This document shows positions 1 to 26,667 of a stretch of 37,517 bases of DNA, piece by piece. Source of the stretch: a virus (lineage: Duplodnaviria; Caudoviricetes); the IMG/VR virus record IMGVR_UViG_3300037043_000397, positions 1-37,517 of that record, one strand, 5' to 3'. A model generated the notes under the pieces. The model was not told the origin of the DNA. It did no database searches and worked only from the letters and a program-made list of their open reading frames with translations. Numbering within the stretch: position 1 is the stretch's first letter; each line of letters opens with the position of its first letter. Made by a program: the position numbers and the translations under genes.

Positions 1-1047
1 TCAGGCCATAGCGTCGAGCGGGCTGCGGACGCCCTCACCGGCGTCGCCCATGACGTGCAGGTAGATCATGGTCGTCTCGATGTTGGCGTGGCCCAGCAGC
101 TGCTGGATCTTGCGCACGTCGTGGCCGGCCTGCAGCAAGTGGGTGGCGAAGCTGTGCCGCAACGTGTGGCAGCTGGCGGGCTTGATGATGCCGGCGGCCT
201 TGACGGCGCGGCCCATCATGCGCTGCACGCCATCTTCGTGCAGGTGGTGCCGCCGGATGGCGCCGGTGCGCGGACAGGTGACGTAGGTGTCCGTGGCAAA
301 GACCCACTGCCAGCCGATGGCGCGCGCATAGCCCGGGTATTTCTGCGCCAATGCGTGCGGCAGCTCGACGTCGGCCTTGCCGCGCGCCATGTCGTCGACG
401 TGCCACTGGGTGCGCTGGGCCACCAGGTCGCGCAGTGGCTGCTGCAGCCGCTTGGGCAGCATCACCACGCGGTCCTTGTTGCCCTTGCCCTCGCGCACGG
501 TGATCTTGAGGCCGTCGAGATCGAGATCCTTGATGCGCAGGCGCAGGCCTTCCATCAGCCGCAGGCCGCTGCCGTAGAGCAGCTGCAGGACCAGGCCGCG
601 TGTGCCCGTGACGTGCGGCCATAGGCGCTGCACCTCGGCCTGCGTCAGCACGCACGGCAAGCGCCGGGCCTGTTTGGCGCGCGGGATCTCGTCGATCCAC
701 GGTAGCTCGATCTGCAGCACCTGCTTGTACAAGAACAGCAGCGCGGCCAGCGCCTGGCGCTGGGTGCTGGCGGCGACGTCGCGCTCGGTCGCCAGCCAGG
801 TCAGGAACTGCCGGATCTCGGGCGCACCCAGTTCCACCGGATGCCGCTTGCCAGACCACAGCACAAACATCTTCACCCAGTGCCAGTAGGCCTGCTCGGT
901 GCGCCGGCTGTAGTTCAGGGTGCGGATGGCCTCAACCACCTGGCGCTGCAGATCGCCCGGCTTGGGGCCGGCATCCGCGGTGCGGTGTAACGCGGCCTCG
1001 GCTGCGGCCGTAACGGGCTGCACGGTGGGTGGCGCGAGGGATGCCAT
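1..1047 (-). CDS. intI: Integron integrase (tyrosine recombinase, IntI family)
   Basis: N-terminal YSRRTEQAY...HP...VAASTQRQALAALLFLY. Catalytic R (GLR), K (GKGNKDR), HTLRHSFATH, LLGH and TTMIY are present. Carries the IntI-specific insertion ELPHALAQKYP..WQWVF and C-terminal VRSPLD. Exact start uncertain. Confidence 0.96.
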   Translation of the reverse strand: MASLAPPTVQPVTAAAEAALHRTADAGPKPGDLQRQVVEAIRTLNYSRRTEQAYWHWVKMFVLWSGKRHPVELGAPEIRQFLTWLATERDVAASTQRQALAALLFLYKQVLQIELPWIDEIPRAKQARRLPCVLTQAEVQRLWPHVTGTRGLVLQLLYGSGLRLMEGLRLRIKDLDLDGLKITVREGKGNKDRVVMLPKRLQQPLRDLVAQRTQWHVDDMARGKADVELPHALAQKYPGYARAIGWQWVFATDTYVTCPRTGAIRRHHLHEDGVQRMMGRAVKAAGIIKPASCHTLRHSFATHLLQAGHDVRKIQQLLGHANIETTMIYLHVMGDAGEGVRSPLDAMA

Positions 1048-1060
1048 GGTCTGGTGGTGT

Positions 1061-1099
1061 TGTTACGCCGCAGGGTCTGCGGTCGAATTCCTGTTAGCC
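1061..1099 (+). other. attI: attI-like recombination site (core GTTAGCC 1093-1099, crossover G1093/T1094)
   Basis: GTTRRRY-type core 46 bp from the intI start; it is the exact complement of the attC R'' box. Upstream TGTTACGCCGCAGGG resembles the attI1 direct-repeat region (TGTTACGCAGCAGGG, recalled from memory) at a similar distance from the core. Confidence 0.75.
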
Positions 1100-1558
1100 C
1101 TCTTGCGCCAGGCTCGCATGCACGTTGTCCCAGAACATCCGGTCATCGACGCGCAGCAGAAAGCCCTCTTTCATCATGTCGCCGCCAGTGCTGACGATGT
1201 GGGCCGCACAGGTCCAAGCCTTCGCGGTGTCCACGTCGGCCGGCGTGCAACGCTCGATCTTCTCCAGCGCCAGCAGGTGGGGGCACTCGCGCGTCTTCAC
1301 GCCCTTGCAGCACGTCAGGTGGTTGTCCTTCACCGGCACCGGGGCCTGCATGCTGCACTGCTGGTGCGTCTGCGGCAGCGCGTTCTCGCGCTCCTGGCGG
1401 AACAGCATCACCATGCGCGGCACCTCGTCGGCCATGCTCTTGGCTTCGTACATGAAGCGCATGTCGCCCCATTCCTTGTCGGCCTTGCGCCATTCGTCGC
1501 TGTGCCTGTTCACGGCAACGTGCCATTCGTGGCTCAGCGGGTACTGCAACCGTTCCAT
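1094..1558 (-). CDS. Cassette-encoded Cys/His-rich hypothetical protein (154 aa)
   Basis: ATG preceded by GGAGAAAGC, normal amino-acid composition, and TAA stop inside the attI/R' core. Confidence 0.8.
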   Translation of the reverse strand: MERLQYPLSHEWHVAVNRHSDEWRKADKEWGDMRFMYEAKSMADEVPRMVMLFRQERENALPQTHQQCSMQAPVPVKDNHLTCCKGVKTRECPHLLALEKIERCTPADVDTAKAWTCAAHIVSTGGDMMKEGFLLRVDDRMFWDNVHASLAQEG

Positions 1559-1669
1559 GCTTTCTCCACCGGAGGGCTAACCCCTCGCTCAAGCAGACCG
1601 CGAACGGCGGTCACGTTTTCTCGCTCCGTCCAGGCCAGCAGCGCCGTTCACGGCTGCTTAGCTCGAACG
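1094..1669 (+). mobile_element. Integron gene cassette (576 bp) with inverted ORF
   Basis: Bounded by G|TTAGCC (1093) and G|TTGAAC (1669). Circularisation would regenerate a fully complementary R''/R' pair, GGCTAAC/GTTAGCC. Confidence 0.88.
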
Positions 1670-1675
1670 TTGAAC
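1575..1675 (+). other. attC: attC site (101 bp)
   Basis: R'' GGCTAAC 1575-1581, 5-bp spacer, L'' GCTCAAGC 1587-1594, L' GCTTAGC 1656-1662, 6-bp spacer, R' GTTGAAC 1669-1675. The arms pair with unpaired C1590 and A1597 (extrahelical G and T on the bottom strand) and one bottom-strand G-T wobble. Confidence 0.95.
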
Positions 1676-1676
1676 A

Positions 1677-1949
1677 TCACCCCGCCACCGCCCGCGCACC
1701 CACGCGCCGCCGCCCCGTGTTCTCCGGCGGCAACTGCGAGCTCTCCGGCCTGGCCAGACCCCACGCGCGCAGCTCGTCGACCAGCCAGCCCGTGCGCCGG
1801 CCACTGAGGGCGCGGCAGCGGGGGAAGGTCTTGTCCTCGCGCGTCAGCCGCTCGAAGGTGCTGACGCTCAGCGCCAGGTACGCGGCGGCCTGGTCGCGCT
1901 CCAGGTACAGCGGCGTCAGCTGCACCACGGTGGACGTGTTCAGTGCCAT
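1677..1949 (-). CDS. AlpA/excisionase-like HTH DNA-binding protein
   Basis: YLERDQAAAYLALSVSTFERL...FPR.RALSGRRTGWLVDELRAW pattern; GAGAGG SD; last gene of the leftward early arm. Confidence 0.85.
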   Translation of the reverse strand: MALNTSTVVQLTPLYLERDQAAAYLALSVSTFERLTREDKTFPRCRALSGRRTGWLVDELRAWGLARPESSQLPPENTGRRRVGARAVAG

Positions 1950-1957: not shown

Positions 1958-2209
1958 TCAGATCAGCCCATCGCCGTCGACGGCGATGTGCACGGGCGGG
2001 TGGGTGTCGCCCAGCACCACCAGGCGCACGGCCAGGCCGGCCTGCAGGCGCTTGAGCTCCTCGGGTGTGGGCATCCAGAAGCTGGCCACGCCACGGGTGC
2101 CGCACTCGTACTGCAACCGCGTCACGGGCAGCGCGCTGCATTGCTCGATGGGCATGCCTTGTGGCGCGCCCAGCACGGCGTTGTTGCTGGGGTAGTGGTG
2201 GCGGTTCAT
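1958..2209 (-). CDS. Phage hypothetical protein (83 aa)
   Basis: C-x-x-LPV...SFWMPTPEEL..L..G..V.L...G..HPPV motif seen in small phage proteins; ATGA overlap with the upstream gene. Confidence 0.7.
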   Translation of the reverse strand: MNRHHYPSNNAVLGAPQGMPIEQCSALPVTRLQYECGTRGVASFWMPTPEELKRLQAGLAVRLVVLGDTHPPVHIAVDGDGLI

Positions 2210-2454
2210 GGTTCGCCTCCAGGCAGCGGCGGGAAGCGTTCCAGCCGCAGCATGAACTGCACCTGGGCGATGCGTTTGGCAACTGGGTCGCCAGGGTCCG
2301 CTTCCAGTACGAGTCGGCCGCCGCAGTCGACGGCGTGCATGAACAGCTCCAGCTGTGGCGCTTTGCCAGCCTCCAGCGTCAGCACGGCCTTGTGCGTGTG
2401 CTTCGGCAGGCCGAGCGCCTTGCTCAGGTCGCGGGTGAGTTCTCGGGCGCTCAT
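2206..2454 (-). CDS. Hypothetical protein (82 aa)
   Basis: ATGA translational coupling on both sides. Confidence 0.65.
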   Translation of the reverse strand: MSARELTRDLSKALGLPKHTHKAVLTLEAGKAPQLELFMHAVDCGGRLVLEADPGDPVAKRIAQVQFMLRLERFPPLPGGEP

Positions 2455-4271
2455 GGATGCGCGCTCTCGAACATGTCCACGGTGTTCGGATCGCGATCAA
2501 GCTCGCGTGCGCCGGCGCAGCCGGCTTCGTCCTTCACTTCCTGCGCCGCAGGCGCGGTCTCCAGCTCGGCCAGGGTGCCGCCCGCGGCCAGGTGGGCCTT
2601 CACCCAGGCGGGTTGCAGCCCGCGGCCAGACCACGTTTGCAGCGTGGCCGCGCAGCGGTACTTCGCGCCCTTGGTGCCCGCCCCTTTCGCCGCCCGCGCA
2701 GCGCTGGAAGGGGTAGATGCACCTTCGGGCGCAGGCGTCTGTACGGGTTCGGCACGTGCCTGGTCGACGTCGATGCCGTACAGCCGGGCCATGCTGGCCA
2801 GCGCGTCGGGTGTGCCCCTCTCCCGGTAGCTGCACACCACGTTGCGCACCAGCACCAGGTCCAGCAGCAGCAGGCCCAGCTGGTCCGGCGTCAGGCCGGG
2901 CAGGCGCGCGATGAGGGCATCGCAGTGGTCCACGCCGTGGGCTTGGCACAGGGTGGGCCAGGCCTCGCTGTCTTCGCTGTCGGTGATCAGGTGCTCCAGC
3001 ACCAGCCGCAGCTCGTCGGCGGTACGGGGCCGGCTGGCAGCCGCGCCGCGCACGGCGGCCAGCAGCCGCTTGTTGGCGGCGGTGTCGGCCGCGGCCTGTT
3101 GCTCGCGCTGCTCGCGGTCGCGCCGGTAGGCCTCGTGGTCGTAGCCCCCGCTCTTCTTCTTCGGCTCGGCCTGGGCCACGCCGGCGGCCTTCAGGTCCGC
3201 GGCGGCCACGGCCTCGAAGGTCTTGCCGGTGCGCGGGTCCTGGATCACCACGGTGGCGGGCTTGGGGCCGGCCACCTTCTTCAGCTCGGCGCGCACGTCC
3301 TTCAGGGCCACATAGGCGCCCTTCACCTCGCCGACTGCGCTGACGGCCTGGCGCGCCTTGTTTCCGGTGATCACGGTCTTGCCCTGGGCCTGCAGCGCAT
3401 CGGCCTGGCGGGCCAGCTGTGCGCGCTTCTTGGCGTCGAAGCACTCGGGGTCGGTGCAGAGCTTGGGGTCACCGCGGTGCACGTAGCCGTGGTACGGGCC
3501 CGGGGTGTCTTGCACCAGGTCGGCAAACTCCGGTGCGTTGGCGCTGAGCTTGGGGCAGCTGCTGCAGGGGCCGGCCAGGGTCAGGGTGGCGTCTTCGGGG
3601 TCGAAGAAGGTGCGGCTCACGTGCAGGGTGAACTTGTCCTTCAGCAGCTCCTTGATCTGGCGGTAGCTCTTGGTGCCGCCGTCCTTCATGTCCAGGTACC
3701 TGCCCTGGATGGCGGCCAGCGCCTTGGCCTGCAGCTTGGCGTGGCCGACGCGGGCCACCAGCAGCGCCACCTCGCTGCCGATCTCGCCCTTGAGGCACGC
3801 ATCGCGCACCTGGGGGCAGGCCTGCAGCAGCTTGAGCCGGCTGTAGACGTAGCTGCGGCTCTTGCCTACGGTCTCGGCCAGCTCGTCGGCGCTCAGGCCG
3901 TCGGCCAGCATGGCCTGCATGCCCTCGGCCTCCTCGATGGGGTGCACGTCGGCGCGCTGCAGGTTCTCGGCGATCTGCGCGCTGCGGGCCTCGGCATCGC
4001 TCATGGCGCGCACCATGCAGGGCACGCTGGCCAGGCCGGCGGCCTCGGCCGCGCGCAGGCGGCGGTGGCCGAAGATCACCTCGAAGCCGTCGTTCACGTC
4101 GTCACGCAGCGGGTTGATCAGGCGCGGGCGCACCAGCAGGGGCTGGTGCACGCGGCCCTCGGCGCGGATGTTGGCGGCCAGCTCGTCGATGCCGGTGAAG
4201 GTGCGGCGCGGGTTGAAGGGGCTCTCGTGCAGCTGCTCGAGCGGGATCTGGGTGATCTGTTCGTTGCTCAT
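2451..4271 (-). CDS. ParB/RepB/Spo0J-family protein with C-terminal H-NS-like DNA-binding domain
   Basis: SPFNPRR, EVIFGHRRLRAA, ENLQRADVHPIEEA and HTH LAETVGKSRSYVYSRLKLL; CxxC..CxDPxC cluster; C-terminal KYRC...TWSGRGLQPAWV. Start at 4271 or 4289. Confidence 0.9.
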   Translation of the reverse strand: MSNEQITQIPLEQLHESPFNPRRTFTGIDELAANIRAEGRVHQPLLVRPRLINPLRDDVNDGFEVIFGHRRLRAAEAAGLASVPCMVRAMSDAEARSAQIAENLQRADVHPIEEAEGMQAMLADGLSADELAETVGKSRSYVYSRLKLLQACPQVRDACLKGEIGSEVALLVARVGHAKLQAKALAAIQGRYLDMKDGGTKSYRQIKELLKDKFTLHVSRTFFDPEDATLTLAGPCSSCPKLSANAPEFADLVQDTPGPYHGYVHRGDPKLCTDPECFDAKKRAQLARQADALQAQGKTVITGNKARQAVSAVGEVKGAYVALKDVRAELKKVAGPKPATVVIQDPRTGKTFEAVAAADLKAAGVAQAEPKKKSGGYDHEAYRRDREQREQQAAADTAANKRLLAAVRGAAASRPRTADELRLVLEHLITDSEDSEAWPTLCQAHGVDHCDALIARLPGLTPDQLGLLLLDLVLVRNVVCSYRERGTPDALASMARLYGIDVDQARAEPVQTPAPEGASTPSSAARAAKGAGTKGAKYRCAATLQTWSGRGLQPAWVKAHLAAGGTLAELETAPAAQEVKDEAGCAGARELDRDPNTVDMFESAHP

Positions 4272-4285
4272 GGTGGTGGCGGTCC

Positions 4286-4681
4286 TCATGCGTTGCGCCA
4301 GATGGCGGTGGTGTCGGCATCGAGCTTGCGCACGCTGACGTCGCAGCCGTTCTTCTTGGCCCAGCTGCTGAAGCTCTTGGCCTGCGCGGCGGTGAGGTCC
4401 ACGCTGTGGCCGGGCTGCAGGCGGGCCCACAGGCCGGCCCAGAATTCGCCGACGCGGCTGCTGTGGAGGCGCTGCACCATCGGCCTGTCGGTGCGGATGA
4501 CCAGCTGCTCGAGCGCGGGCAGCTGCACGCGGGTGCGCTGGCGCTCGGGCGCGGGCGGGGCGGCGGTAGCGGCGCTGCGGCCCAGCGCGAACACGCTGTT
4601 GGCGGGCACGGTGCGCTGCACCATCTTGTCGGGCAGGTCGCCCTGCAGCTTGGGCAGGGGGACGGTGTTCGTCTTGCTCAT
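4286..4681 (-). CDS. Hypothetical protein (131 aa)
   Basis: ATG start, coupled to the downstream gene, phage-like codon usage. Confidence 0.65.
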   Translation of the reverse strand: MSKTNTVPLPKLQGDLPDKMVQRTVPANSVFALGRSAATAAPPAPERQRTRVQLPALEQLVIRTDRPMVQRLHSSRVGEFWAGLWARLQPGHSVDLTAAQAKSFSSWAKKNGCDVSVRKLDADTTAIWRNA

Positions 4682-4693
4682 GGCGGTCTCGGG

Positions 4694-5281
4694 TTAGCGG
4701 ATGGGGGCGGCCCGCAGGCCGTGCATCAGCAGGTCCAGCTGGTCGTACAGGGCGATGCGGCTGCCGTTGTTGGGCAGGGTGGTGTCGACCACCAGGGCGT
4801 CGGCATGGGCCTCGCTTTCGTGCGGGCGCACGGCGGTGGCATCGGCGCGCTGCAGGCGCACCAGCACGCCGCCCTGGGCAGTGAGCCAGTCGGCCTCGTT
4901 CGGGAATCGCACGTCGCTGATGACGACGTTGTCGCCCGTGCGCAGCAGCTCGCGCACACGCAGGGTGGCCACCCGCAGCCAGAAGTCGGGCGCCACGGTG
5001 TTGCGGCCCCACTCGGTGCCCAGGGTCTGCGCCAGGTGGCGGTAGCTGAAGCCCAGCGTGGTGGGCTGCTCTTTCAGCGCGCGCTCGGCCATCCAGGCGC
5101 CGTCGATGCCGGCGGTGTTGAAGAGCGCGCCGATCATGTCGACGATGGGGTCGGCAAAGGCGATGTGCGCGAAGCCGTACTGGTCTTCCAGGTACGCAGC
5201 GGCGGTGCTCTTGCCGCTGCCGGCGCGGCCCGTCAGGCCGATCAGCAGCGGGGGGTTGAGGGGGGGCAGATCCAGCTGCAT
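4694..5281 (-). CDS. Deoxynucleoside monophosphate kinase (phage type)
   Basis: LIGLTGRAGSGKSTAA P-loop, FADP, QTLGTEWGR, VVISDVRFPNEA, HESE motifs. Confidence 0.9.
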   Translation of the reverse strand: MQLDLPPLNPPLLIGLTGRAGSGKSTAAAYLEDQYGFAHIAFADPIVDMIGALFNTAGIDGAWMAERALKEQPTTLGFSYRHLAQTLGTEWGRNTVAPDFWLRVATLRVRELLRTGDNVVISDVRFPNEADWLTAQGGVLVRLQRADATAVRPHESEAHADALVVDTTLPNNGSRIALYDQLDLLMHGLRAAPIR

Positions 5282-5619
5282 CACGCCACCGCCTGCAAGG
5301 CCTGCCGCGCCTGCACGTCGGCCAGCTGCTCGCCCACGCTGTGCGCCGCGGCCTTGAACTCGCCGGCCGTGCGGTAGCGGTGGCGCAGGGTGTAGAAGAC
5401 CAGGCCCACCAGGTCGCGCGGCAGCGCGCGCGGGATGTCCTCGGCCAGGCTGGGCGCCAGGTGGCGCAGGTCCACCAACACGGGCTGCAGGTCGGGCCCG
5501 GGCACGGCGCGCAGGTACTTGTGGGGCGCGCCGTTTACCTGCACGGGCTGCAGGCCGATGGCGCTGCCGTCGCGCCAGATCACCTCGTGGCGCGCGGGCA
5601 GGATGGTCACTTGGCACAT
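5281..5619 (-). CDS. Hypothetical protein (112 aa)
   Basis: AGGAGA SD; TGATG overlap with the kinase gene. Confidence 0.65.
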   Translation of the reverse strand: MCQVTILPARHEVIWRDGSAIGLQPVQVNGAPHKYLRAVPGPDLQPVLVDLRHLAPSLAEDIPRALPRDLVGLVFYTLRHRYRTAGEFKAAAHSVGEQLADVQARQALQAVA

Positions 5620-6020
5620 GGATCGTTCTCCTGGACTTGCGCGGCCGTGCTGGCCGGCGCGTGGGTGATGACGCCGGTGCACTCCTCGAGCACCAGCACT
5701 GCGTGGCCGTGGTCGGTGCGCAGGCGCAGCCAGCTGCCGGTGGCGCTGACCAGTGCGCCGCGGCGCAGGCCGACGGCGCGTGCCTCGGCCTGCATGTGGT
5801 CGGTGGGGTCGGTGCCCAGGTCTTGCAGCACCTGGTAGCGCAGCCCGCGCGGGGGCACGATCTCCAGCACCACCCAGGCGCGCGGGTTGGCGCCGGCGCT
5901 GTAGCGCACATGGGCGTCGTACTCCAGCACGCCGGTGATGCGCACCAGGTCCACGCGCTGCAGGTCTGCCTGGCGCGGGGGCGGGCGCAGCAGGCTGGGG
6001 TAGGTGGCGGCGGCGCTCAT
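5607..6020 (-). CDS. Hypothetical protein, possible SSB/PriB-like OB fold
   Basis: ITGVLEYDAHVR...LRRGALVSATG pattern resembles SSB beta strands; fold call is tentative. Confidence 0.5.
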   Translation of the reverse strand: MSAAATYPSLLRPPPRQADLQRVDLVRITGVLEYDAHVRYSAGANPRAWVVLEIVPPRGLRYQVLQDLGTDPTDHMQAEARAVGLRRGALVSATGSWLRLRTDHGHAVLVLEECTGVITHAPASTAAQVQENDPCAK

Positions 6021-6373
6021 GGCTGGCGGCCCAGGTGGTGCAGGGCGCGCTGGATCTCGGCCACGCGGTCTTCAGCGTTCAGGCGGGCGGCGGCATCCTC
6101 CAGCTGCAGGGTCTTCCAATGCCGCACGCTGTGCTGCGCGTGGTCCAGCCGGCGCTGCAGCCAGCGGCGGTGCAGGCGTCTGTACCGCACGGCCCACCAC
6201 TCGCGCAGGTGCCGCCAGCGCGGCATGGCCGTGGCGCCCATGCACAGGGCGGTGCCGGTGGCCTGGCTGCAGGCCATCCAGTGCACGGCCAGCAGCGTCA
6301 GGCCGATGGTGATGAGCAGGCCCAACACGATGCTGAGCACCTGCTGCGTGGTGGTGGGGCGGCCGGAGCTCAC
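6017..6373 (-). CDS. Small membrane-anchored hypothetical protein
   Basis: GTG start with GGAGG SD and GTGA overlap; hydrophobic segment VLSIVLGLLITIGLTLLAVHW. Confidence 0.55.
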   Translation of the reverse strand: MSSGRPTTTQQVLSIVLGLLITIGLTLLAVHWMACSQATGTALCMGATAMPRWRHLREWWAVRYRRLHRRWLQRRLDHAQHSVRHWKTLQLEDAAARLNAEDRVAEIQRALHHLGRQP

Positions 6374-6903
6374 GCAGCCTCCGCGACGGCGTGAAGCGAC
6401 TCGATGTGCTGGGCCGCATCGGACATGACTGCGGACACGCGGCGCAGCTGCGCGGCGTAGTCCAGGAGGTCCGGGTTGACGGCTGAAGGACTGAAGGGCT
6501 GAACGCTGAATCTGCGGACAGCGCGGGCGCGGGCCCCGTACGACTTGCCGTTGCTGTACTGGCTGCCGTTGTCGAAGCCCTGGCTCCAGGCGCCGAGGCG
6601 GCTGTACTGCGTGCTGGTCCAGTACCAGTCGCCGGTCTGGATGCTGTCTCGCAAGTTGGCGTACAGCAGTGCGCTCTCGTCGCGCGTGGGCACGTGCCAG
6701 TCGCTGAAGCCGTCGGTCCGCAGCGCAGCAGCCCAGTCCAGGGCGGCCTGCCACTTCAGGCTGGCGGGCGGCAGATCCGCGGCCAGGATCAAGTGCTGGT
6801 CAGACTCGCCGTCCTGGCCGCGCACGACGCCGGCGTAGAGCCCGCCCATGCCAGGCCAGGGCTGGCCGATGCGCGGGGGCGTCAGCAGAGGGGTGGGCAT
6901 CAT
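6370..6903 (-). CDS. DUF1566 (Lcl C-terminal / CLec-like) protein
   Basis: IGQPWPGMGGLYAG, W..A..WA, DWHVPTRDE..LLY, WYWTSTQ..AW.Q.F..G.Q....K....ARAVRR. Confidence 0.88.
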   Translation of the reverse strand: MMPTPLLTPPRIGQPWPGMGGLYAGVVRGQDGESDQHLILAADLPPASLKWQAALDWAAALRTDGFSDWHVPTRDESALLYANLRDSIQTGDWYWTSTQYSRLGAWSQGFDNGSQYSNGKSYGARARAVRRFSVQPFSPSAVNPDLLDYAAQLRRVSAVMSDAAQHIESLHAVAEAA

Positions 6904-7349
6904 GCGGCCCTCCGCGCACGCGGCAGGCGGGCCTGGGCCAGCTGCCGGCCCAGGGCCAGGAACTCGCGGTCGTTCTCGCGCCGCGCGAAGTAACCGCGCA
7001 GCAGGTCCACGGCGGCCTCGAAGTGCTCGGCGTCGGCGTTGGCCAGCAGGTTGTCCAGCGCCACCGGGGCCTTCTGGCGCCAGTCGTGGCTGTTGTAGAG
7101 GTTGAGCACCAGGGCCTGCAGGCGCAGCGCGGTGCCGTGGTCGCCCACGATCTTGCTGCGGTGCACGGCGAACGGGCTCTCGCCGGCGGCGATGCGGGCC
7201 CGCGCGGTGGCCGCGGCGGCGTGATGCTGCGCCTCCTGCCCGGCCAGCTCGGCCTGCAGGTCAGCCAGCGTGAAGTCGCGGGCCAGGTTGCGCGGGGCCA
7301 GCGGCGGCGCCGCTACGGGGTGTCCAGATGTCTGCACTCTCGCCTCCAT
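6900..7349 (-). CDS. Hypothetical protein, first gene of the leftward early operon
   Basis: ATGA overlap with the DUF1566 gene; lies just downstream of the PL-like promoter. Confidence 0.65.
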   Translation of the reverse strand: MEARVQTSGHPVAAPPLAPRNLARDFTLADLQAELAGQEAQHHAAAATARARIAAGESPFAVHRSKIVGDHGTALRLQALVLNLYNSHDWRQKAPVALDNLLANADAEHFEAAVDLLRGYFARRENDREFLALGRQLAQARLPRARRAA

Positions 7350-7377: not shown

Positions 7378-7420
7378 AATGTAGCTTGGTGCTAGAACAG
7401 TCGTCAATAGCACCAAGCTA
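7378..7420 (-). promoter_or_regulatory. PL-like promoter with two operator copies
   Basis: Minus strand -35 TTGACG (7407-7402) and -10 TACATT (7383-7378). Perfect 13-bp inverted pair TAGCTTGGTGCTA (7382-7394) / TAGCACCAAGCTA (7408-7420). Confidence 0.75.
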
Positions 7421-10734: not shown

Positions 10735-13418
10735 GCGATAGCGGCGGCGGGCCCCGGCTCGCACCCATCAACTTTGTGTCGCTCAACGATGCGCTGCTGA
10801 ACCGCGCGCACCTGCTGCTGCCCGACTGGTTGCCGGGTGGTGACTGGCGAGGGCACGAATACGTGTGCGCCGACCTGTCGGGCGGCGAGGGCAGCAGCCT
10901 CAGCGTCAACAGCAAGACGGGGGTGTGGGCGGACTTCAGTGGTGACGACAAGGGCTCCGACCTGGTCAGCCTGTACGCCGCCATCCACAACCTGGGCCAG
11001 GCCGCCGCGGCGCGCGAGCTGATGCAGATGCTGGGCTGGGAGCAAGAGCAGGCGTCTGCACACCGGCCGTCGCCGTCGGCGGCGCCCAAGCCGGCGGCCC
11101 CTGCTCCTGAGCTTGCAGACAAGGCGCGCCGCAAGAGCTTGTGGCGTGCCATCGTGCCGGTGCCCGGCCATGCGCCCATGCCCAAGTTCCGCTGGGGCTA
11201 CAAGGACAAGACCACGGGAGAGTGGCACGAGCTGCTGGCGGTGGACTTCTGGGAGTACGCCTTCGAGCAGCAGCGCCTGGGCTACGTGGCGCGCTTCCAC
11301 CGCACCAACAGCAAGGGCGAGCCCGAGAAAGAGACCATCCCCTTCACCTGGTGCGTGGACGAGAGCGACGGCCGCGGCACGATGAAGTGGCACCCCAAGC
11401 AGTGGGAGGCACCGCGCCCGCTGTATGTGCCAGCTGCGGCCCTGGGTGACCCGGCGCGCAAGCCCGTGGTGCTGGTGGAAGGCGAGAAGTGCGCTCGTGC
11501 TGGCCACGATCTGCTGGGGGCAGAGTTCGACTTCGTCACCTGGCCAGGCGGCACCAAGGCCTGGGCCCTGGCGCACTGGGGCTGGCTGATGGGCCGCACG
11601 GTGATCATGTGGCCCGATGCGGATGCCAAGCGCGCCAGGCTCACCGCCGCGGAGCGTGAAGCCGGCGTCGACCCCGCCACCAAGCCGCTGCTGCCCCCGG
11701 TCAAGCAGCCCGGCCTGCAGGCCATGCTGGGCATCGGCCAGCTGCTGCAGGCCAAGCAGGCTTGCACCGTGCATCTGGTGGCCATGCTGCCCCCGGGCGA
11801 GCGCCCGGACGGCTGGGACATTGCAGACGCGATCGCGGACGGATGGGATGCCGCGCGCGTGCGTGACTACATCCGCGCGGCCACGCCCTTCATCGCGCCT
11901 GAAGACGCGGTGCGCGCAGCCACCGGCAGCGCTTCTACCCCTTCAAGGGCTGCCGCGGGGGGTGGGGAGGATGCAGACGACGACGGCACGCCCGGGTGGA
12001 TGCGTTACCTGCTGTCCAGCGCCACTGGCACGGTGCGGCCTGTGCGGGAGAACATCGTGCTCGCCCTGGATGGCTGGCCAGACCGGGGTGTGCCGGGCAT
12101 CCCGGCCTGCCAGGGGCTGATCCGCTTCAACGAGTTCAGCAACAACGTCGAGAAGTCCGGGCCCACGCCCTGGGGCACGCCGGCGGGCGACTGGCTGGAA
12201 GCCGATGAGCTGCTGATGGGCGACTGGCTGGTGCGGCAGCACCAGATGCCCAGCTTCCCGCGCCAGCAGCTGGAAGAGGCGGTGATCATCGTGGCCAGGC
12301 GCCACGGATTCCACCCCATGCGCGAGAAGCTCGTGGGCCTGCGCGGCCGCTGGGACCGCACCAACCGCCTGGACACCTGGCTGCGCCGCTGCTGCCTGGA
12401 AGAAGACGAGTGGGGCGACGCTGACCCGCTGCAGCGCTACCTGACGCTGGTGGGCCGTTGGTTCGTGATGGGCATGTGTGCCCGCGTGCTGCCCGAGGTG
12501 CGGCAAGGCGGCCGCGTGGTCATCGGGCCGGGCACCAAGTTCGACTACATGCTGGTGTTCGAGGGGCCGCAGGGCTGGGGCAAGAGCAGCCTGGCCGCGG
12601 TGCTGGGCGGCGACTACTTTGCCGACACCGGCCTGGACATCAACAACAAAGACTCGCTGATGAACATCCAGGGCATCCTGGTGTACGAATGGAGCGAGCT
12701 GGAGAACCTGAACAAGCAGGAGGTGGGCGCCGTCAAGCGCTTCATCTCGTCGCCGTCTGACCGCTTCCGTGCCACCTTTGACCGGCGGCCCGCCAAGTAC
12801 CCGCGCCAGGTGGTCTTCGTGGGCACCACGAACGAGAGCCACTACCTGACGGACCCCACCGGCAACCGGCGCTTCTGGCCCGTGCGTGTGACGCAGGCGC
12901 CAGACCTGGCCTGGCTGCGGGAGAACCTGGAGCAGCTGCTCGCCGAGGCCGTGCACCGCGTGGAAGCCGGTGAGCGCTTCTGGCCTGACCGCGATGAGCA
13001 GCGCGATCTTTTCGACCCGCAGCAGCTGGCCCGCACGGTGGAGAGCTCGCTGGAGTCGTCCATCGTGGACTATCTCTACAACGAGCAGCAGAAGGTGCCG
13101 ATGGGCCAGTCCAACGGCTCGCTGCTGCCGCACATCACCATGGTCGACCTGCTCAGCCGCGTGGGCTACACGCTGGACAAGCAGACCGACGCCGTGGTCA
13201 AGAAGGCCGGCGCCATCCTGCACAAGCTGGGCTGGGAGCCCAGCAAGCGCCTGGCGTCCAACGACGAAGGCCGGCGGCCGCGCGCCTACGTGCGCCCGCC
13301 GCCGGGTCGATCAAGGCAGGGTGCCGGCGCGAGCCAGGCATCGGCCGACAGCAACACCAACCGCCCGACGCAGGGCAAGCCACCAGCAGGGGCCGACGAT
13401 GACGACTGCCCGTTCTGA
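10725..13418 (+). CDS. Primase-helicase fusion: primase-type N-terminus, TOPRIM domain and VirE/VapE P-loop ATPase
   Basis: TGVWADF..DDKGSDLVSLY; VLVEGEKCA, WPDAD, GWDIAD; Walker A GPQGWGKS; FVGTTN..YLTDPTGNRRFWPV. Start uncertain. Confidence 0.9.
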   Translation: MPVGDSGGGPRLAPINFVSLNDALLNRAHLLLPDWLPGGDWRGHEYVCADLSGGEGSSLSVNSKTGVWADFSGDDKGSDLVSLYAAIHNLGQAAAARELMQMLGWEQEQASAHRPSPSAAPKPAAPAPELADKARRKSLWRAIVPVPGHAPMPKFRWGYKDKTTGEWHELLAVDFWEYAFEQQRLGYVARFHRTNSKGEPEKETIPFTWCVDESDGRGTMKWHPKQWEAPRPLYVPAAALGDPARKPVVLVEGEKCARAGHDLLGAEFDFVTWPGGTKAWALAHWGWLMGRTVIMWPDADAKRARLTAAEREAGVDPATKPLLPPVKQPGLQAMLGIGQLLQAKQACTVHLVAMLPPGERPDGWDIADAIADGWDAARVRDYIRAATPFIAPEDAVRAATGSASTPSRAAAGGGEDADDDGTPGWMRYLLSSATGTVRPVRENIVLALDGWPDRGVPGIPACQGLIRFNEFSNNVEKSGPTPWGTPAGDWLEADELLMGDWLVRQHQMPSFPRQQLEEAVIIVARRHGFHPMREKLVGLRGRWDRTNRLDTWLRRCCLEEDEWGDADPLQRYLTLVGRWFVMGMCARVLPEVRQGGRVVIGPGTKFDYMLVFEGPQGWGKSSLAAVLGGDYFADTGLDINNKDSLMNIQGILVYEWSELENLNKQEVGAVKRFISSPSDRFRATFDRRPAKYPRQVVFVGTTNESHYLTDPTGNRRFWPVRVTQAPDLAWLRENLEQLLAEAVHRVEAGERFWPDRDEQRDLFDPQQLARTVESSLESSIVDYLYNEQQKVPMGQSNGSLLPHITMVDLLSRVGYTLDKQTDAVVKKAGAILHKLGWEPSKRLASNDEGRRPRAYVRPPPGRSRQGAGASQASADSNTNRPTQGKPPAGADDDDCPF

Positions 13419-14408: not shown

Positions 14409-14867
14409 ATGCCCACCTCAGCACCCAAGCCCTGCATGATCTGCAGCACCCTCGTCCACGATGGCGGCATGCGCTGCCCTGCGCACCAGCGCAAGGTGTG
14501 GAGCAAGTACGCCGACGCGCCGCAGCGCATCACCGGCCGGCGCCTGCAGAAGATGCGCGAGTCGCTCTTCGCGCGTGAGCCGCTGTGCCGCCTGTGCATG
14601 CAGCAGGGCCACACCACGCTGGCCACCATCCGCGACCACATCGTGCCGCTGGCCGAAGGCGGCACCGACGACGACGAGAACATCCAGCCCATCTGCGCCG
14701 ACTGCGACGACGTCAAGTCGAAGGCCGAACGCCTGCGCGGCCGCGGCCTGGCCCTCCCCACCCCGGCGGCCGCCGGGGGGAGGGGGGGTCAAATCTCCAC
14801 CACCCCCGCCCCGGAAACCGAACGGTTCGGTGGATTTTCTTGCGCGCAGGTTTTGGGGATTTTTTAA
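14409..14867 (+). CDS. HNH endonuclease (terminase-associated, HK97 gp74-like)
   Basis: PLCRLC, DHIVPLAEGGTD..NIQPICADC; directly before terS. Confidence 0.88.
   Translation: MPTSAPKPCMICSTLVHDGGMRCPAHQRKVWSKYADAPQRITGRRLQKMRESLFAREPLCRLCMQQGHTTLATIRDHIVPLAEGGTDDDENIQPICADCDDVKSKAERLRGRGLALPTPAAAGGRGGQISTTPAPETERFGGFSCAQVLGIF
14752..14866. other. Putative cos/packaging region
   Basis: Perfect 18-bp palindrome CCCCGGCGGCCGCCGGGG 14761-14778, then a G-run GGGGGGGTCAAATCTC and T-tracts, between the HNH domain and terS. Confidence 0.5.
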
Positions 14868-14873
14868 CTGGCC

Positions 14874-15407
14874 ATGGGAGCTCGGGGACCCAAACCGCTG
14901 CCGGCGAATGTGCGTGCTTTCACGGGCACGGCGCATCGTGCGTTGCGTGCTGCGGACCTGGCGGACGGCGTGCACCCCGAGGTCGGCCTGCCGACCGTCC
15001 CGCACCACCTATCGCCCGAGGCCAGCAAGGAGTGGAAGCGCATCACGCCGCTGCTGCTCGAGCTCAACCTGCTCACCAAGATCGACCGCGCCGCGCTCGA
15101 GCTGTACTGCCGTGCCTACGGCCGGCTGCAGCAGGTCGAGCGCGCGCTCACCGCGCGCCAGGCGCAGCTGGTGAAGGACGACAAGGACCCGACCGACGCG
15201 CTTGTGCAGCCCACGCCCACTGGCTTCTTGCGCGAGTCCGCGCTCAGCAAGCTGGCGGCCGAGCTCTCGCAGCAGGTCGACCGCTACCTGGCGTCGTTCG
15301 GCATGTCGCCCAGCAGCCGCAGCCGCGTGACCGCCTCGCGCAACGACGCCCAGTTCCGCCTGCCGGGGATGGAAGACGACAAGCCTACCGGCTTCGGCGC
15401 GCTCTAG
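14874..15407 (+). CDS. terS: Terminase small subunit (P27 family)
   Basis: MGARGPKP, P.HLS.EA.KEWKRI, D.AALE.YC..Y, FGMSPSSRSR. Confidence 0.92.
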   Translation: MGARGPKPLPANVRAFTGTAHRALRAADLADGVHPEVGLPTVPHHLSPEASKEWKRITPLLLELNLLTKIDRAALELYCRAYGRLQQVERALTARQAQLVKDDKDPTDALVQPTPTGFLRESALSKLAAELSQQVDRYLASFGMSPSSRSRVTASRNDAQFRLPGMEDDKPTGFGAL

Positions 15408-15411
15408 CACC

Positions 15412-17175
15412 ATGAAGGACTACGCCGCGATCGCGACCCAGTACGCGAGGGATGTGCACGAGCTGCGCATCCCCGCGTGCCGTTGGGTGCAGCTGGCCGC
15501 CAAGCGCCACCTGGACGACATGGCCCGCCAGGGCGCAGACGACTTCCCCTACGTCTGGAACCCCGAGCTCGTCGACACCAAGGGCAAGGCCTACCAGCCG
15601 GCCAACCGCGTGTGCGGCTTCGCCGAGCTGATGCCGCACATCAAGGGCGACTGGGCCGGCCGCGGCGAGCTGATCCGGCTGGACCCATGGCAGGTGTTCT
15701 TCCTGGCCAGCGTCTTCGGCTGGATTCACCGCGACACCGGCAAGCGCCGCTTCCAGAAGGCCGACCTGGTGGTGCCGCGCAAGAACGCGAAGAGCACCAT
15801 CGCGGCCATCATCGGCAACTACATGCTGGCCTTCGACGGCGAGCACGGTGCCGAGATCTACAGCGGCGCCACCAGCCGCGACCAGGCGCACGAAGTCTTC
15901 CGCCCCGCGCAGCTGATGGCCAAGGCCAACCACGCCTACCGGGCCGCGTTCGGCGTGATGGTCAACGCCTCCAACCTGGCGGTGCTGGACAGCAACAGCA
16001 AGTTCGAGCCGCTGATCGGCAAGCCCGGCGACGGCGCAAGCCCCAGCTGCGCGATCGTGGACGAGTACCACGAGCACGCCACAAGCGAGCTGTACGACAC
16101 CATGTGGACGGGCATGGGCGCCCGCAGCCAGCCGCTGCTGCTCGTGATCACCACCGCCGGCAGCAACATCGGCGGGCCGTGCTTCACGCACCAGGTCGAG
16201 CTGCAGAAGATCCTCGAGGGCGCCGTGCGCGATGCCGCCACCGAGCGCCGCTTCGGGATCATCTACACCATCGACAAGGGCGACGACTGGACGGCCCCGG
16301 CCACGCTCTACAAGGCCAACCCAGGCCTGGGCATCTCGATCGATGCCGAGAAGCTCATCGCCGACCAGGCCGAGGCCGGGCGAGACCCGCGCAAGCAGCC
16401 CGTCTTCAAGACCAAGCACCTGAACGTGTGGGTCAACGCCGCCAGCCCGTGGCTGACGGTGGAGCAGATCTCCAGCAGCGCCGACCCCAGCCTGAGCGAA
16501 GAAGACTTCCGCGGTGAGAGCTGCTTCGACGGCCTGGACCTGGCCAGCAAGAACGACATCGCCAGCAAGGCCAAGCTCTTTCGCCGGCTGGAGGATGGGC
16601 CGCGCGGGCGCGACTGGCACTACTACCTCTTCACCCGCAACTGGCTGCCTGAGGCGACGGTGCAGCGCCCCGAGAACCAGCACTACCAGGCCTGGGTGGA
16701 GCAGGGCGCCATCGTGCAGACGCCTGGAAACATGATCCAGCTGCGGGCCATTCAAGAATCCGTCGAGGCCGATGCCGCGCTGCACCTGGTGGCCGAGGTG
16801 GCCATGGACGCCTGGGGCTCGCGCGAGATCGCGCCCAACCTTCAGGACGGCGGCTTCGTCGTCGTGGATGTGCCCATGAACACCCGCTACCTGAGCGAGC
16901 CGATGAAGCTGATCGCCGCGCTCATCGACGACGGCCGCTTCCACCACGATGGGAACCCGGCAACCGCCTGGATGTTCAGCAACGTCGAGGTGCAGGAAGA
17001 CCGCAACGAAAACATCTTCCCGCGCAAGGCCAAGCCCGAGCTGAAGATCGACGCCGCCGTGGCCGCCATCCTGGCCATGGGCCGCGCCATGTTGGGCGCC
17101 AAGCCGCCGGTCAAGTCGTTCTGGGAAACGGATGACGCCGCCGGCGTCGAGGCAGAAGCCGAGGCCGCCGCATGA
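15412..17175 (+). CDS. terL: Terminase large subunit
   Basis: VPRKNAKST Walker A, IVDEYHEH Walker B, ITTAG, GLDLAS, KIDAAVA. Confidence 0.96.
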   Translation: MKDYAAIATQYARDVHELRIPACRWVQLAAKRHLDDMARQGADDFPYVWNPELVDTKGKAYQPANRVCGFAELMPHIKGDWAGRGELIRLDPWQVFFLASVFGWIHRDTGKRRFQKADLVVPRKNAKSTIAAIIGNYMLAFDGEHGAEIYSGATSRDQAHEVFRPAQLMAKANHAYRAAFGVMVNASNLAVLDSNSKFEPLIGKPGDGASPSCAIVDEYHEHATSELYDTMWTGMGARSQPLLLVITTAGSNIGGPCFTHQVELQKILEGAVRDAATERRFGIIYTIDKGDDWTAPATLYKANPGLGISIDAEKLIADQAEAGRDPRKQPVFKTKHLNVWVNAASPWLTVEQISSSADPSLSEEDFRGESCFDGLDLASKNDIASKAKLFRRLEDGPRGRDWHYYLFTRNWLPEATVQRPENQHYQAWVEQGAIVQTPGNMIQLRAIQESVEADAALHLVAEVAMDAWGSREIAPNLQDGGFVVVDVPMNTRYLSEPMKLIAALIDDGRFHHDGNPATAWMFSNVEVQEDRNENIFPRKAKPELKIDAAVAAILAMGRAMLGAKPPVKSFWETDDAAGVEAEAEAAA

Positions 17176-18422
17176 AGCTCTGGCCCGACCGTTGGCGCCT
17201 GGCCGCCAAGGCCACCACGCCCATGAGCAGCGCCACCCTGGCGCAGCTGCTCAGCAGCGTGTTCGGCGGTGGTGCCACCAAGAGCGGCGCCACCGTCAAC
17301 GTCGACACCGCCCTGCAGGTGACCGCCGTGCTCTGCTGCGTGCGCGTGCTGGCCGAGGGCGTGGCCCAGGTGCCGTGGCAGGTGATGCGCCAGACCACCA
17401 ACGCCGCCGGCCGCGTGACGCGCCTGCCGGCACTGCAGCACCCGCTGTACCGTCTGCTCTGGCGCAAGCCCAACCGCTGGCAGACCAGCTTTGCCCTGCG
17501 CGAGACCATGATGTACCACGTCGTCCTGTGCGGCCGTGCCTACGCCTTCATCAGCCGCGTGGGCAGCGAACAGCGCATCGCCGAGCTGATCGTCATCCCG
17601 CCAGGCCGTGTGCGCACCGATGTGGCCGACGACGGCACGCTGACTTACCACGTCACCGGCCGCAGTGGCAACGTGCGCGTCCTACGCGAAGCCGACCTGT
17701 GGCACTGGCGCGGCCCAAGCTGGGACGGCATCGAAGGCCTGGAGATGGTGCGCGTCGCGCGCGAGGCCATCGGCCTGGCCGCCGCTGCGGAAGAGTCTCA
17801 AGCCAGGCTGCACGCCAACGGTGTGCGCCCGTCCGGGATCTACAGCGTCGAAGGCGCGCTGGACGAAAAGCAGTACGGGCAGCTCAAGGCCTGGGTGATC
17901 AAGGAATTCGGCGGCGCCACGAACGCCGGCGTGCCGCTGATCCTGGACCGCAACGCCAAGTGGCTGCCCAGCGGCATGACCGGCGTGGACGCCCAGCACC
18001 TGGAGACTCGGCGCGAGCAGGTCAACGAGATCTGCCGCGCCTTCCGCGTGCTGCCCGCCATGGCCATGCAGCAGGAGAAGACCGCCAGCTACGCCAGCGC
18101 CGAGCAGATGGCCATCTGGCACGTGGTGCACAGCCTCATGCCCTGGTACGAGCGCATCGAACAAAGCGCCGATTGCCATCTGCTCACTGACGCCGAGCTC
18201 GACCAGGGCTACTACACGCTGCTGGACGGCAAGGGCCTGCTGCGCGGCGCGCTGAAGGACACCGCGGAGTACCTGTCCAAGCTCAGCGAGCGCGGAATCA
18301 TGGTCCGCAACGAAGCGCGCGAGTACCTGGACCTGAACCCCCTGGACGGCCTGGACGAGCCGCTCACGCCCGCCAACCTGCTTACCAGCGCCGAGAACGA
18401 CCCGGCCGGTGCAGACGCCTGA
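17172..18422 (+). CDS. Portal protein (HK97 family)
   Basis: AV..CVRVLAEGVAQVP, HPLY.LL..KPN.WQT, NG.RPSG, NEARE..DLNP. Confidence 0.95.
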   Translation: MKLWPDRWRLAAKATTPMSSATLAQLLSSVFGGGATKSGATVNVDTALQVTAVLCCVRVLAEGVAQVPWQVMRQTTNAAGRVTRLPALQHPLYRLLWRKPNRWQTSFALRETMMYHVVLCGRAYAFISRVGSEQRIAELIVIPPGRVRTDVADDGTLTYHVTGRSGNVRVLREADLWHWRGPSWDGIEGLEMVRVAREAIGLAAAAEESQARLHANGVRPSGIYSVEGALDEKQYGQLKAWVIKEFGGATNAGVPLILDRNAKWLPSGMTGVDAQHLETRREQVNEICRAFRVLPAMAMQQEKTASYASAEQMAIWHVVHSLMPWYERIEQSADCHLLTDAELDQGYYTLLDGKGLLRGALKDTAEYLSKLSERGIMVRNEAREYLDLNPLDGLDEPLTPANLLTSAENDPAGADA

Positions 18423-18440
18423 ACCGCAAGGACACACCCC

Positions 18441-19097
18441 ATGGAACTCAAGTACATCGAGCGCCCCTTCGAGGTGAAAGCCGTCGAGGAAGATGGCACC
18501 TACACCGGGTACGGCAGTGTTTTCGGCAACGTGGACAGCTACGACGAGATCGTGGCGCCCGGCGCCTTCACTGAGAGCCTGGCCGCCTGGAAGGCCAGCG
18601 GCAACCTGCCGCCCGTGCTGTGGCAACACCGCAGCGGCGAGCCCGTCGGCCCGCACCTGGAGATGAGCGAAGACACGCACGGCCTCTTCCTGAAGGGCCA
18701 GCTGCTGGTGGCCGACGTGCAGCGCGCCCGCGAGGCCCGCGCCCTGATGAAGGCCAAGGCCGTGAACGGCCTGAGCATTGGCTTCGTGCCGCGGGAAGAC
18801 AGCTACGACCGCGTCACCGGCATCCGCACGCTCAAGAAAGTCGACTTGTGGGAGGTGTCCATCGTCACCTTCCCCGCCAACCCCCAGGCGCAGATTGCGA
18901 ACGTCAAGTCCGCCATCGACGCGCTGGCAGACCTGGACGCCCTGGAACGCTACCTGTGTGAGGCAGGTGGCTTCAGTCGCGCCCAAAGCAAGGCCGTCCT
19001 GCACCGCATCAAGCACCTCTCCGCTCAGCGCCAGGCTGAGTCGGATCTGGAGCTGCGTGCCGCGCTGGAGCGCCTGCAACAGACCCTGACCACCTGA
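18441..19097 (+). CDS. Prohead maturation protease (HK97 family)
   Basis: GYGSVFGNVDSY, LWQH, GLSIGF, LWEVSIVTFPAN. Confidence 0.95.
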   Translation: MELKYIERPFEVKAVEEDGTYTGYGSVFGNVDSYDEIVAPGAFTESLAAWKASGNLPPVLWQHRSGEPVGPHLEMSEDTHGLFLKGQLLVADVQRAREARALMKAKAVNGLSIGFVPREDSYDRVTGIRTLKKVDLWEVSIVTFPANPQAQIANVKSAIDALADLDALERYLCEAGGFSRAQSKAVLHRIKHLSAQRQAESDLELRAALERLQQTLTT

Positions 19098-19128
19098 ACC
19101 ACCCCACCTGACACAAGGACACACCACC

Positions 19129-20514
19129 ATGAACCGTTCCACTCACTTCCTGGCCGCGATCGCGGCTCTCGCCATCGGCGCGGTGGCCATCGCCGCCGGC
19201 CTGGCCGACCCCTACCTGGCACTCGTCGGCCTGCAGCCGATGGACCTGCTGCCCGGCCTCATCCTCGCCAACGCCGTCGGCGGCCTGGAGCTCAAGACCC
19301 TGGTCGAAGCCGTGCAAAAGGGCTTCGAGGACTTCAAGAAAGTCAACGACGAGCGCCTGGCCCGCCTGGAGAAAGGCGGCGCCACCGGCGACATCGATGC
19401 CAAGCTCGCCCAGGTGCAGGCCGACATAGCCAAGGCGCTGGACCTGAAGAAGGAGATCGATCGCGTCGAAGCCAAGGCCAACCTGCAGGGCCTGCTGGGC
19501 AAGGGCGACGAAGGCAACGCCGACAAGAAGGCCTACAAGGAGGCGTTCATCAACCGCTTCGTGCGCAAGGGCGAAGACAGCGCCGAGCTCAAGGGCCTGA
19601 TGCAGAAGGCCTGGAGCATCGGCACCCCGGCCGATGGCGGCTACGCCATGCCCGAGGAGATCGACCGCGCCATCGAGAAGCTGCTGCGCGACATCAGCCC
19701 CATGCGCAGCGTGTCCAACATCGTGCGCGTCGGCACCAGCGACTACAAGAAGCTCGTCAACGTCAACGGCATCGCCAGCGGCTGGGTGGGTGAAACCGCC
19801 GCCCGCCCCGCCACCAACACCAGCCAGCTGGCCGAGGTGGCGCCGCCCATGGGCGAGGTGTACGCCAACCCGCAGGTGACGCAGCAGGCACTGGACGACG
19901 TGTTCTTCGATGCCGAAGCGGAGCTGATGGACCAGCTGATGGAAGAGCTGGCCGTGGCCGAAGGCGCCGCCTTCACCAGCGGCAACGGCACCAACAAGCC
20001 CAAGGGTTTCCTGGACTACACCACGGCGGCCACGGCCGACAGCAGCCGCGCGTTCGGCACGCTGGAGCACATCGCCACCGGCGTCTCGGCCGACTTCGCG
20101 GCCAGCAACAAGGCCGACGCCTTGTTCTCGGTGGTCGGCGCGCTCAAGAAGGGCTACCGCGCCGGTGCCCTGTGGCAGATGAACAAGGGCCTGCTCTTCG
20201 AGGTGATGCGCATCAAGGACACCACCGGCCAGTACCTGTGGCAGCCATCCATCCAGGACAGCGGCCTGGGCATCAAGCTGCTGGGCTTCAACGTCGAAGA
20301 GAACGAGGACATGCCCGCCAAGGCCGCCAACAGCCTGAGCATCGCCTTCGGCAACTTCAAGCGCGGTTACACCATCGTGGACCGCATGGGCATGCGCATG
20401 CTGCGCGACCCGTACACCAACAAGCCCTACGTGGGCTTCTACACCACCAAGCGCGTGGGCGGCGCCGTGGTCAACAGCCAGGCCATCAAGCTGCTGAAGT
20501 TCAGCGCGGCCTGA
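19129..20514 (+). CDS. Major capsid protein (HK97 fold)
   Basis: DGGYAMPEE, WVGE, G.GTNKPKG, FGNFKRGYTIVDR, RDPYT.KPYV.FY..KRVGG. Confidence 0.96.
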   Translation: MNRSTHFLAAIAALAIGAVAIAAGLADPYLALVGLQPMDLLPGLILANAVGGLELKTLVEAVQKGFEDFKKVNDERLARLEKGGATGDIDAKLAQVQADIAKALDLKKEIDRVEAKANLQGLLGKGDEGNADKKAYKEAFINRFVRKGEDSAELKGLMQKAWSIGTPADGGYAMPEEIDRAIEKLLRDISPMRSVSNIVRVGTSDYKKLVNVNGIASGWVGETAARPATNTSQLAEVAPPMGEVYANPQVTQQALDDVFFDAEAELMDQLMEELAVAEGAAFTSGNGTNKPKGFLDYTTAATADSSRAFGTLEHIATGVSADFAASNKADALFSVVGALKKGYRAGALWQMNKGLLFEVMRIKDTTGQYLWQPSIQDSGLGIKLLGFNVEENEDMPAKAANSLSIAFGNFKRGYTIVDRMGMRMLRDPYTNKPYVGFYTTKRVGGAVVNSQAIKLLKFSAA

Positions 20515-26665: not shown

Positions 26666-26667
26666 TC

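Follow-up and report, generated by a model that had tools for sequence, protein, structure and literature searches.

Integrons are textbook bacterial devices, and recent work indicates that they stock anti-phage defences. A virus record of 37,517 bp, the whole of which we analysed and refer to as the window, carries an integron at its left end, raising the question of whether such a platform can be resident in a phage or was acquired there from a host chromosome. The preliminary description of this DNA argued for a phage-native integron, and the evidence assembled here supports that reading: we consider it probable that the element is an integron housed in a mutS-targeting temperate phage, in the slot between the integrase (int) gene and the likely excisionase (xis) gene, with cassettes that are reshuffled, likely by the phage's integron integrase (IntI), and with genes that lie antisense to attC on the leftward early operon. 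Because the first base of the record falls on the stop codon of intI and the last on that of the endolysin gene, the window must have been cut at gene boundaries; it represents an HK97-like phage, whose temperate-phage set of head, tail and lysis genes is completed by the integration gene of a second assembly, L001 (Table 1).

Table 1. Coordinates of the features discussed, in the window unless L001 is named.
Feature	Position	Strand	Remarks
intI, integron integrase, 348 aa	1..1047	-	TIGR02249 419.8 bits, cut-off 265
attI, compact	1060..1099	+	crossover G|TT at 1093|1094
Cassette A	1094..1669	+	576 bp, 64% GC
Cassette A gene, 154 aa	1094..1558	-	antisense to attC, in line with xis and intI
attC of cassette A	1575..1675	+	four canonical boxes
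attC R'' GGCTAAC	1575-1581	+	
attC L'' GCTCAAGC	1587-1594	+	
attC L' GCTTAGC	1656-1662	+	
attC R' GTTGAAC	1669-1675	+	
AlpA-type gene, likely xis acting with the phage integrase	1677..1949	-	PF05930 22 bits, cut-off 21
Early genes: ParB-like, dNMP kinase, Lcl-C	1958..7337	-	tightly packed, gaps -13 to +14 nt
sigma70-like site	7378..7407	-	heads the leftward early row; weak, 0.5 expected by chance
VapE-type primase/helicase, replication module	10776..13418	+	
HNH, terminases, portal, protease, HK97-type capsid, tail, holin, endolysin	14409..37517	+	
Phage integrase, arm-binding tyrosine integrase, 432 aa	L001 2296-3594		convergent with intI, stops overlap

By every structural test the locus is a true integron, with an IntI that has the IntI-specific insertion and the catalytic set RKHRHY, an attI that receives cassettes at G|TT and an attC that folds. 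The intI gene, the last of the leftward early row, is an open frame without a clear ribosome-binding site, and its product aligns gap-free with IntI1 across 312 aa (54% identity) and also with the VchIntI4 structure 2a3v; its profile score and its six catalytic residues (R163, K188, H294, R297, H320 and Y329) bear out the earlier view that the enzyme is intact. The attI-like site, also recognized earlier, is confirmed as the joining point of two different cassettes, A and B, in the window, in L001 and in contigs from sequencing runs; its crossover lies 46 nt from the intI start, and it shows the motif common to the clade described below, TGTTAY..GCGGTCGAATT-N3-GTT. A strict L-box scan of both strands of the 37.5 kb passed a single site, the attC of cassette A, which had already been described as canonical, has an extrahelical base and folds on its bottom strand at -24.2 kcal/mol (z -2.2, 4 of 200 shuffles being equally good). 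Since GTTAGCC at 1093-1099 is the exact complement of its R'' box, the cassette was defined as 576 bp. The stop codon of the AlpA-type gene, which also matches a PHROG excisionase (E 4e-7), lies one base past the R' box with no IS or host gene between them, as previously stated; this gene was itself considered as a cassette and rejected, as no matching R'' occurs upstream before 9805. The locus is neither a class 1 nor a sedentary integron, and its orientation departs from the canonical one: we found neither a near-identical IntI1, a LexA box and a Tn402-type context, nor the flanks of a chromosomal array (they are a phage int and AlpA, and the clade members stand in phage contexts), nor an expression layout with ORFs on the attC top strand and a Pc near attI.

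The placement of the integron within the phage emerges from L001 (IMGVR_UViG_3300038679_000135), a second assembly of the same phage that is 100% identical to the window and bridges its two ends with 2.1 kb, in the order endolysin, spanins, att region, integrase, intI, array. The bridging stretch encodes two spanins, followed by an intergenic region with arm-type repeats on either side of a core, and then the integrase. An attL between 1675 and 1949 had been named as an outcome that would speak against a phage-native integron; the core lies instead approximately 1.5 kb past the end of intI, beyond the phage integrase, and because the core is past int and int is past intI, the integron is internal to the phage and flanked by int and xis. 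The core reads AHTPMMAQ, which is the 5' end of mutS with the MutS start motif. Of 151 genomes from a Burkholderiales family, 25 contain the pattern of the core, each a single time, and none contains a control pattern; the eight core-bearing genome loci examined all lead into the same protein start, two scanned ORFs being MutS. The position of the core, in the N-terminal motif of MutS and next to a related integrase, places the phage among the temperate phages that target mutS. Two further contigs from run X3 (4915 and 1498 bp) branch at the core, with 30 nt in common only, and the contig that holds the core is about twice as deep as either, which fits an integrated prophage; in L001, the attP join may have arisen because the assembler ran through the attL and attR of a lysogen. 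The complete genome would measure approximately 39.6 kb with cassette A and 40.1 kb with A and B. As a separate observation, a short substitute for the N-terminus of MutS is encoded at L001:3712-3840, in frame with the att core, so that host mismatch repair would come under a start supplied by the phage once integration has taken place.

Relatives of the phage integrase show what else can occupy this position. A convergent AlpA homologue follows int in 34 of 36 such relatives, at a distance of at most 60 bp in 20 and after 0.4-3.8 kb of other cargo in 14, the remaining two having no AlpA; none of the 36 has intI in its 5-kb flank. As the int-AlpA interval of the relatives is empty or holds other cargo, the integron fills a cargo slot between int and xis. 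Elements and prophages that target mutS are known to integrate in the HTPMMQQ motif and to supply a new mutS start (Chu et al., 2017, PMC5296598), so that the insertion site itself was already known; the accessible part of that paper, which describes both features shared with our phage, makes no mention of an integron.

The count of one cassette in the preliminary description holds for the window, and L001 and the sequencing runs add a second, cassette B (523 bp), with its own attC and two inverted ORFs that have zero Pfam or PHROG matches. The L001 array reads attI-B-A-B before the contig ends. In run X1, contigs were found for all six possible junctions among attI, A, B and xis, at depths (contig means, not copy numbers) of 9.3 for attI|A, 6.4 for attI|B, 12.5 for B|A, 6.1 for A|B, 12.6 for A|xis and 4.6 for B|xis, compared with 17-24 for the long pieces. 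Run X4 has five of the six, B|xis not being among those listed; attI|A is not among the junctions listed for run X3, and coverage of run X2 is thin. In a search for expression, no RNA data set was listed as containing the locus, and run X5 gave too little coverage. Cassette A also stands alone as a 580-bp contig in X1 and X4, and neither an empty attI|xis site nor a cassette-circle joint is among the listed run contigs, which prove presence, not absence. All four runs are from groundwater of 2020, perhaps from one campaign, and X1-X3 may be the source samples. Every junction variant breaks at G|TT in contigs that are otherwise letter-identical, and the variants are therefore very recent, in the relative sense that contigs, which cannot phase whole arrays or date events, allow; the recombining partners have just 3-5 nt in common, so homologous recombination is unlikely. 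We conclude that arrays are reordered within single samples, a direct sign of reshuffling at the locus. The earlier proposal that the phage swaps cassettes by IntI recombination thus stands as to the reordering, with the phage's own IntI as its likely catalyst, and the single cassette of the window probably reflects one route that the assembler took through a mixed population. The second ORF of cassette B (L001:993-1244) has no stop codon within the cassette and its C-terminus is set by the neighbour, attI or attC_A, so shuffling alters the tail of the protein; the first ORF may start within attC_B.

A phylogeny of this IntI against chromosomal IntIs had been suggested earlier. Searches returned 23 and 80 viral loci plus 79 genome loci, from which 130 sequences remained after removal of duplicates, of sequences under 250 aa and of those under 36% identity and were placed in a first tree; 88 of these were re-treed with IQ-TREE. 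Forty-four distinct IntIs (40 from viral contigs, 4 from MAG contigs) are separated from the others by a branch with an SH-aLRT of 96, in a tree that was sampled by similarity to the query, on which the clade was also defined, and for which SH-aLRT is the support measure in place of a bootstrap. The neighbours of the clade are class 1-like betaproteobacterial IntIs, from which its remote origin is probably bacterial. The best 29 chromosomal IntIs of the Burkholderiales family and three more all fall outside the clade, and among the family matches listed only a prophage-context IntI reaches 65% identity, the others being at most 57%. A phage integrase lies within two genes of intI in 39 of 41 informative members (35 tyrosine, 4 serine; L003 was used in place of L002, which has an identical IntI); of the remaining members three end too soon, one runs on into head genes and one lies in a transposase-bearing phage. 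In at least 19 of the 44 loci, lysis or tail genes come next; this attP-joined arrangement may represent free phage DNA or else a path taken by the assembler. Synteny with a host integron was sought as well, and the close relatives of this IntI were found in phage contexts. The clade thus appears to be restricted to phages, its members occupying viral or prophage loci apart from the sampled chromosomal IntIs.

Clade members also share features of the enzyme and its site. The matched region is stop-free in all 44, the six catalytic residues are present in 43, and dN/dS ranges from 0.03 to 0.26 across 12 chosen pairs; judged by reading frames and substitution rates, the clade's IntIs are intact and under purifying selection. 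The attI motif GAATT-N3-GTT occurs at 33 of 39 clade loci and at none of 31 chromosomal loci. LexA boxes near intI were found at 2 of the 39 clade loci, both GC-rich, and at 6 of the 31 chromosomal loci, all in the class 1-like sister group; absence of the box was rejected as a clade marker, a weak one given that 25 of the 31 chromosomal controls also have none. In the transposase-bearing (Mu-like) phages L013, L144 and L155, intI and inverted cassettes lie in the early region, and two of these three IntIs fall outside the clade. In L011 (874-2103), intI meets a convergent relative of the phage integrase and each gene is cut short at the meeting point, an arrangement that looks like a deletion joining the two 3' ends.

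The orientation of the cassette genes sets these loci apart from bacterial arrays. From 90 chained entries we retained 62 distinct cassettes with full R/R'' complementarity at 26 loci, with none contributed by four loci at which the attI pattern failed or by loci without upstream DNA, and called orientation by the longest ORF and by Pfam matches. The longest ORF is antisense to attC in 57 of the 62 cassettes, compared with 14 of 52 control cassettes from 23 loci, among which are two inverted MAG contigs of unchecked context (Fisher p 2e-13). Pfam matches were obtained for 11 of the 62 antisense ORFs (two doubtful; six are DNA methyltransferases) versus none of the 62 sense ORFs. Stop codons are concentrated in two places, the G|TTA core (12) and a point 8 nt inside it (13), the mirror image of bacterial cassettes. 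Viral IntIs outside the clade are accompanied by inverted cassettes as well (18 of 20, at 10 loci), and cassette B recurs in three other clade phages, with 93-96% identity across a stretch of 69 residues in its first protein. Genes placed in this way would be read from the phage early operon.

Several other explanations were weighed against residence in the phage with reshuffling by its own enzyme. That the platform is phage-resident and yet rearranged in trans by a host chromosomal IntI, or that the variants are old differences between sister prophages, is unlikely in our judgement: the phage IntI is intact, with purifying selection across its clade and a conserved attI of its own 46 nt away, and the contigs are identical to the letter elsewhere. 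This alternative draws on the frequency of IntI in the Burkholderiales family sampled (176 of 401 genomes at E<=1e-60), on the five viral loci that hold homologues of cassette A as cassettes with no intI in the stretch examined, and on the inability of contigs to phase molecules. Recent acquisition of a host chromosomal integron at the prophage edge, in the manner that Qi et al. (2023) describe for Vibrio and Shewanella, has a published precedent (PMC9892861), a window that begins exactly at the intI stop and class 1-like betaproteobacterial tree neighbours to recommend it; it is largely refuted and seems to us very improbable, given an att core beyond the phage integrase, host-family matches that among those listed reach 65% only in a prophage-context copy, cassette genes that are inverted here, unlike those of most controls, and a clade that spans phages with different tyrosine and serine integrases.

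The remaining two alternatives concern the nature of the locus itself, and we give them next to no credence. Were IntI the phage's own integration enzyme and attC/attI its attachment site, one could understand why the window holds no other integrase and why intI occupies the place where int comes after xis in lambdoid phages; the L001 extension refutes this idea by revealing a separate arm-binding integrase and an arm-repeat-flanked mutS core after intI, and a second integrase accompanies intI in nearly all informative clade members. A chimeric assembly joining a bacterial integron to phage DNA is scarcely credible either, since independent assemblies of four runs contain intI and array, attI-intI-int (contigs of 2610 and 2637 bp) and attC-xis are each covered without a break, and the layout recurs in dozens of other contigs, even if the record is a metagenomic contig, cassette-end repeats confuse assemblers and the arrays of the window and L001 disagree.

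The gene of cassette A is preceded by GGAG at 1564-1567, and its stop codon TAA is the complement of the TTA of the G|TTA core. The protein has conserved Cys/His residues and is a member of a real family (281 homologues among 287 candidates), with zero matches in Pfam, PHROG and NCBIfam, no usable match in the ESM Atlas and none in the phage or plasmid collections searched. Its structural model is confident (pLDDT 89.8); Foldseek, run against PDB and BFVD, returned no match at E<=0.001, and the highest VIA Z, 5.4, covered 43 residues, an absence of fold matches that does not show a new fold for the modelled protein. Homologues occur at nine other viral loci, as cassettes at five (L025-L027, L029 and L031) and without an upstream attC at four (L028, L030, L032 and L033), and these pairs are candidate gene-to-cassette transitions.

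Among known systems, the class 1 platform is the closest in build. Window positions 1061-1075 match, at 14 of 15 nt and a near-equal distance from the crossover, the TGTTACGCAGCAGGG stretch upstream of intI1, which we take to be the DR1 repeat. Compared with a class 1 control (L114, AB571791), the window has the same IntI-specific insertion in an enzyme 54% identical, the same G|TT crossover and canonical attC boxes, and an intI divergent from the attC top strand; it differs in lying in a phage early operon without a transposon, in cassette genes antisense to attC, in the short distance from intI start to crossover, in having no resistance genes that we could see and in lacking the LexA box that all three class 1 controls possess. 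Phage-borne integrons are themselves on record, which qualifies the earlier premise that integrons are normally chromosomal or carried on transposons and plasmids: 3 complete integrons and 1 In0 were found among 10,705 phages, all traceable to bacterial integrons, namely pieces of chromosomal integrons of Vibrio, class 1 integrons on P1 and, in a cryptic prophage, an IntI of the Shewanella type (Qi et al., 2023, PMC9892861). These integrons and CALINs resemble ours in placing integron parts, and methyltransferase cassettes, in phage genomes; the main text of that study reports no phage-specific IntI clade, systematic inversion or in situ reshuffling (PMC9892861). Inverted-integrase integrons, as described in the available portion of PMC13323075, likewise have intI and cassette genes in the same direction; there intI and attC share a strand, whereas the window keeps the regular intI-attI-attC geometry and its genes alone are flipped. 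Searching 50,697 phage records by tblastn with IntI gave 9 matches at E<=1e-40, none above 55%. Neither a literature search with thin coverage of subscription journals nor the available portions of PMC13366799, PMC13323075 and two 2024 preprints described inverted cassettes in phages or an IntI clade specific to them. Captured bacterial integrons in phages are known, and a phage-resident integron clade, inverted cassettes and reshuffling at the locus appear to be new; the preliminary description overlooked the inverted gene orientation, the second cassette and the published phage-borne integrons. One phage record, L113 (KX853513, Virus Rctr41k), carries at 4680-10101 an IntI annotated as xerD and approximately six downstream attC sites on the same strand, with mostly canonical genes; it is an inverted-integrase-type array and is not among the four of Qi et al. 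(2023).

We propose the following working of the element. Upon induction or infection, an early transcript would run from xis through the cassettes to intI without a promoter of the integron; the site at the head of the early row is the single sigma70-like one within 1-10800, the + strand of that interval has no promoter-like site, and read-through into cassettes and intI is inferred because the early genes are packed as far as xis. The attC hairpins may block such read-through. IntI would be made just before replication, tying it to the phage cycle, with excision by attC x attC and reinsertion or capture by attC x attI; new cassettes would enter at attI, the end most distant from the promoter, which is opposite to the gradient of bacterial integrons. 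The preference of IntI for the attC bottom strand fixes insertion polarity, and placing that strand on the lagging template raises recombination, according to the part of Loot (2017, PMC5371416) available. If the origin lies near the primase/helicase, a leftward fork would expose the attC bottom strand on the lagging template and move co-directionally with the genes, and these two effects may explain the gene inversion. The likely purpose would be the sampling of small accessory and counter-defence genes, for example DNA methyltransferases.

The same machinery is here housed by phages; its gene layout is mirrored, its cassette pool is common to several of them, and it would give phages combinatorial variation of accessory and counter-defence genes. 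The locus offers a view, seldom available in nature, of reshuffling within a genome that is otherwise identical, its platform is minimal (an attI of approximately 45 bp and intI), and the pairs of gene and cassette bear on the origin of cassettes. More tentatively, and with doubts that slightly outweigh our confidence, we envisage a phage integron economy in which several IntI lineages were domesticated independently, cassettes turned backward convergently under operon expression and exposure of the attC strand, phages such as this one supply the enzyme to inverted arrays without an integrase in other phages, and early genes became cassettes, the last step being suggested by the existence of cassette A homologues with and without attC. 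If this is true, cassette genesis, an open question, would be directly observable.

Minor observations concern arrays elsewhere and the rest of the window. Duplicated or near-duplicated cassettes occur inside single arrays at L152 (two 653-bp copies), L121 and L016. An Rfam scan of the window returned zero families. The low-GC region at 7400-9800 is presumably the immunity region; profile searches with Pfam, PHROG and NCBIfam named no repressor in 7.4-9.8 kb, and a weak HTH match was found at 8749-9015. A PhoD-like phosphatase gene lies at 22743-24086 amid the head-tail joining genes, and the tail fibre gene at 33390-34904 contains internal repeats of approximately 500 bp (78% alike) and a collagen-like stretch.
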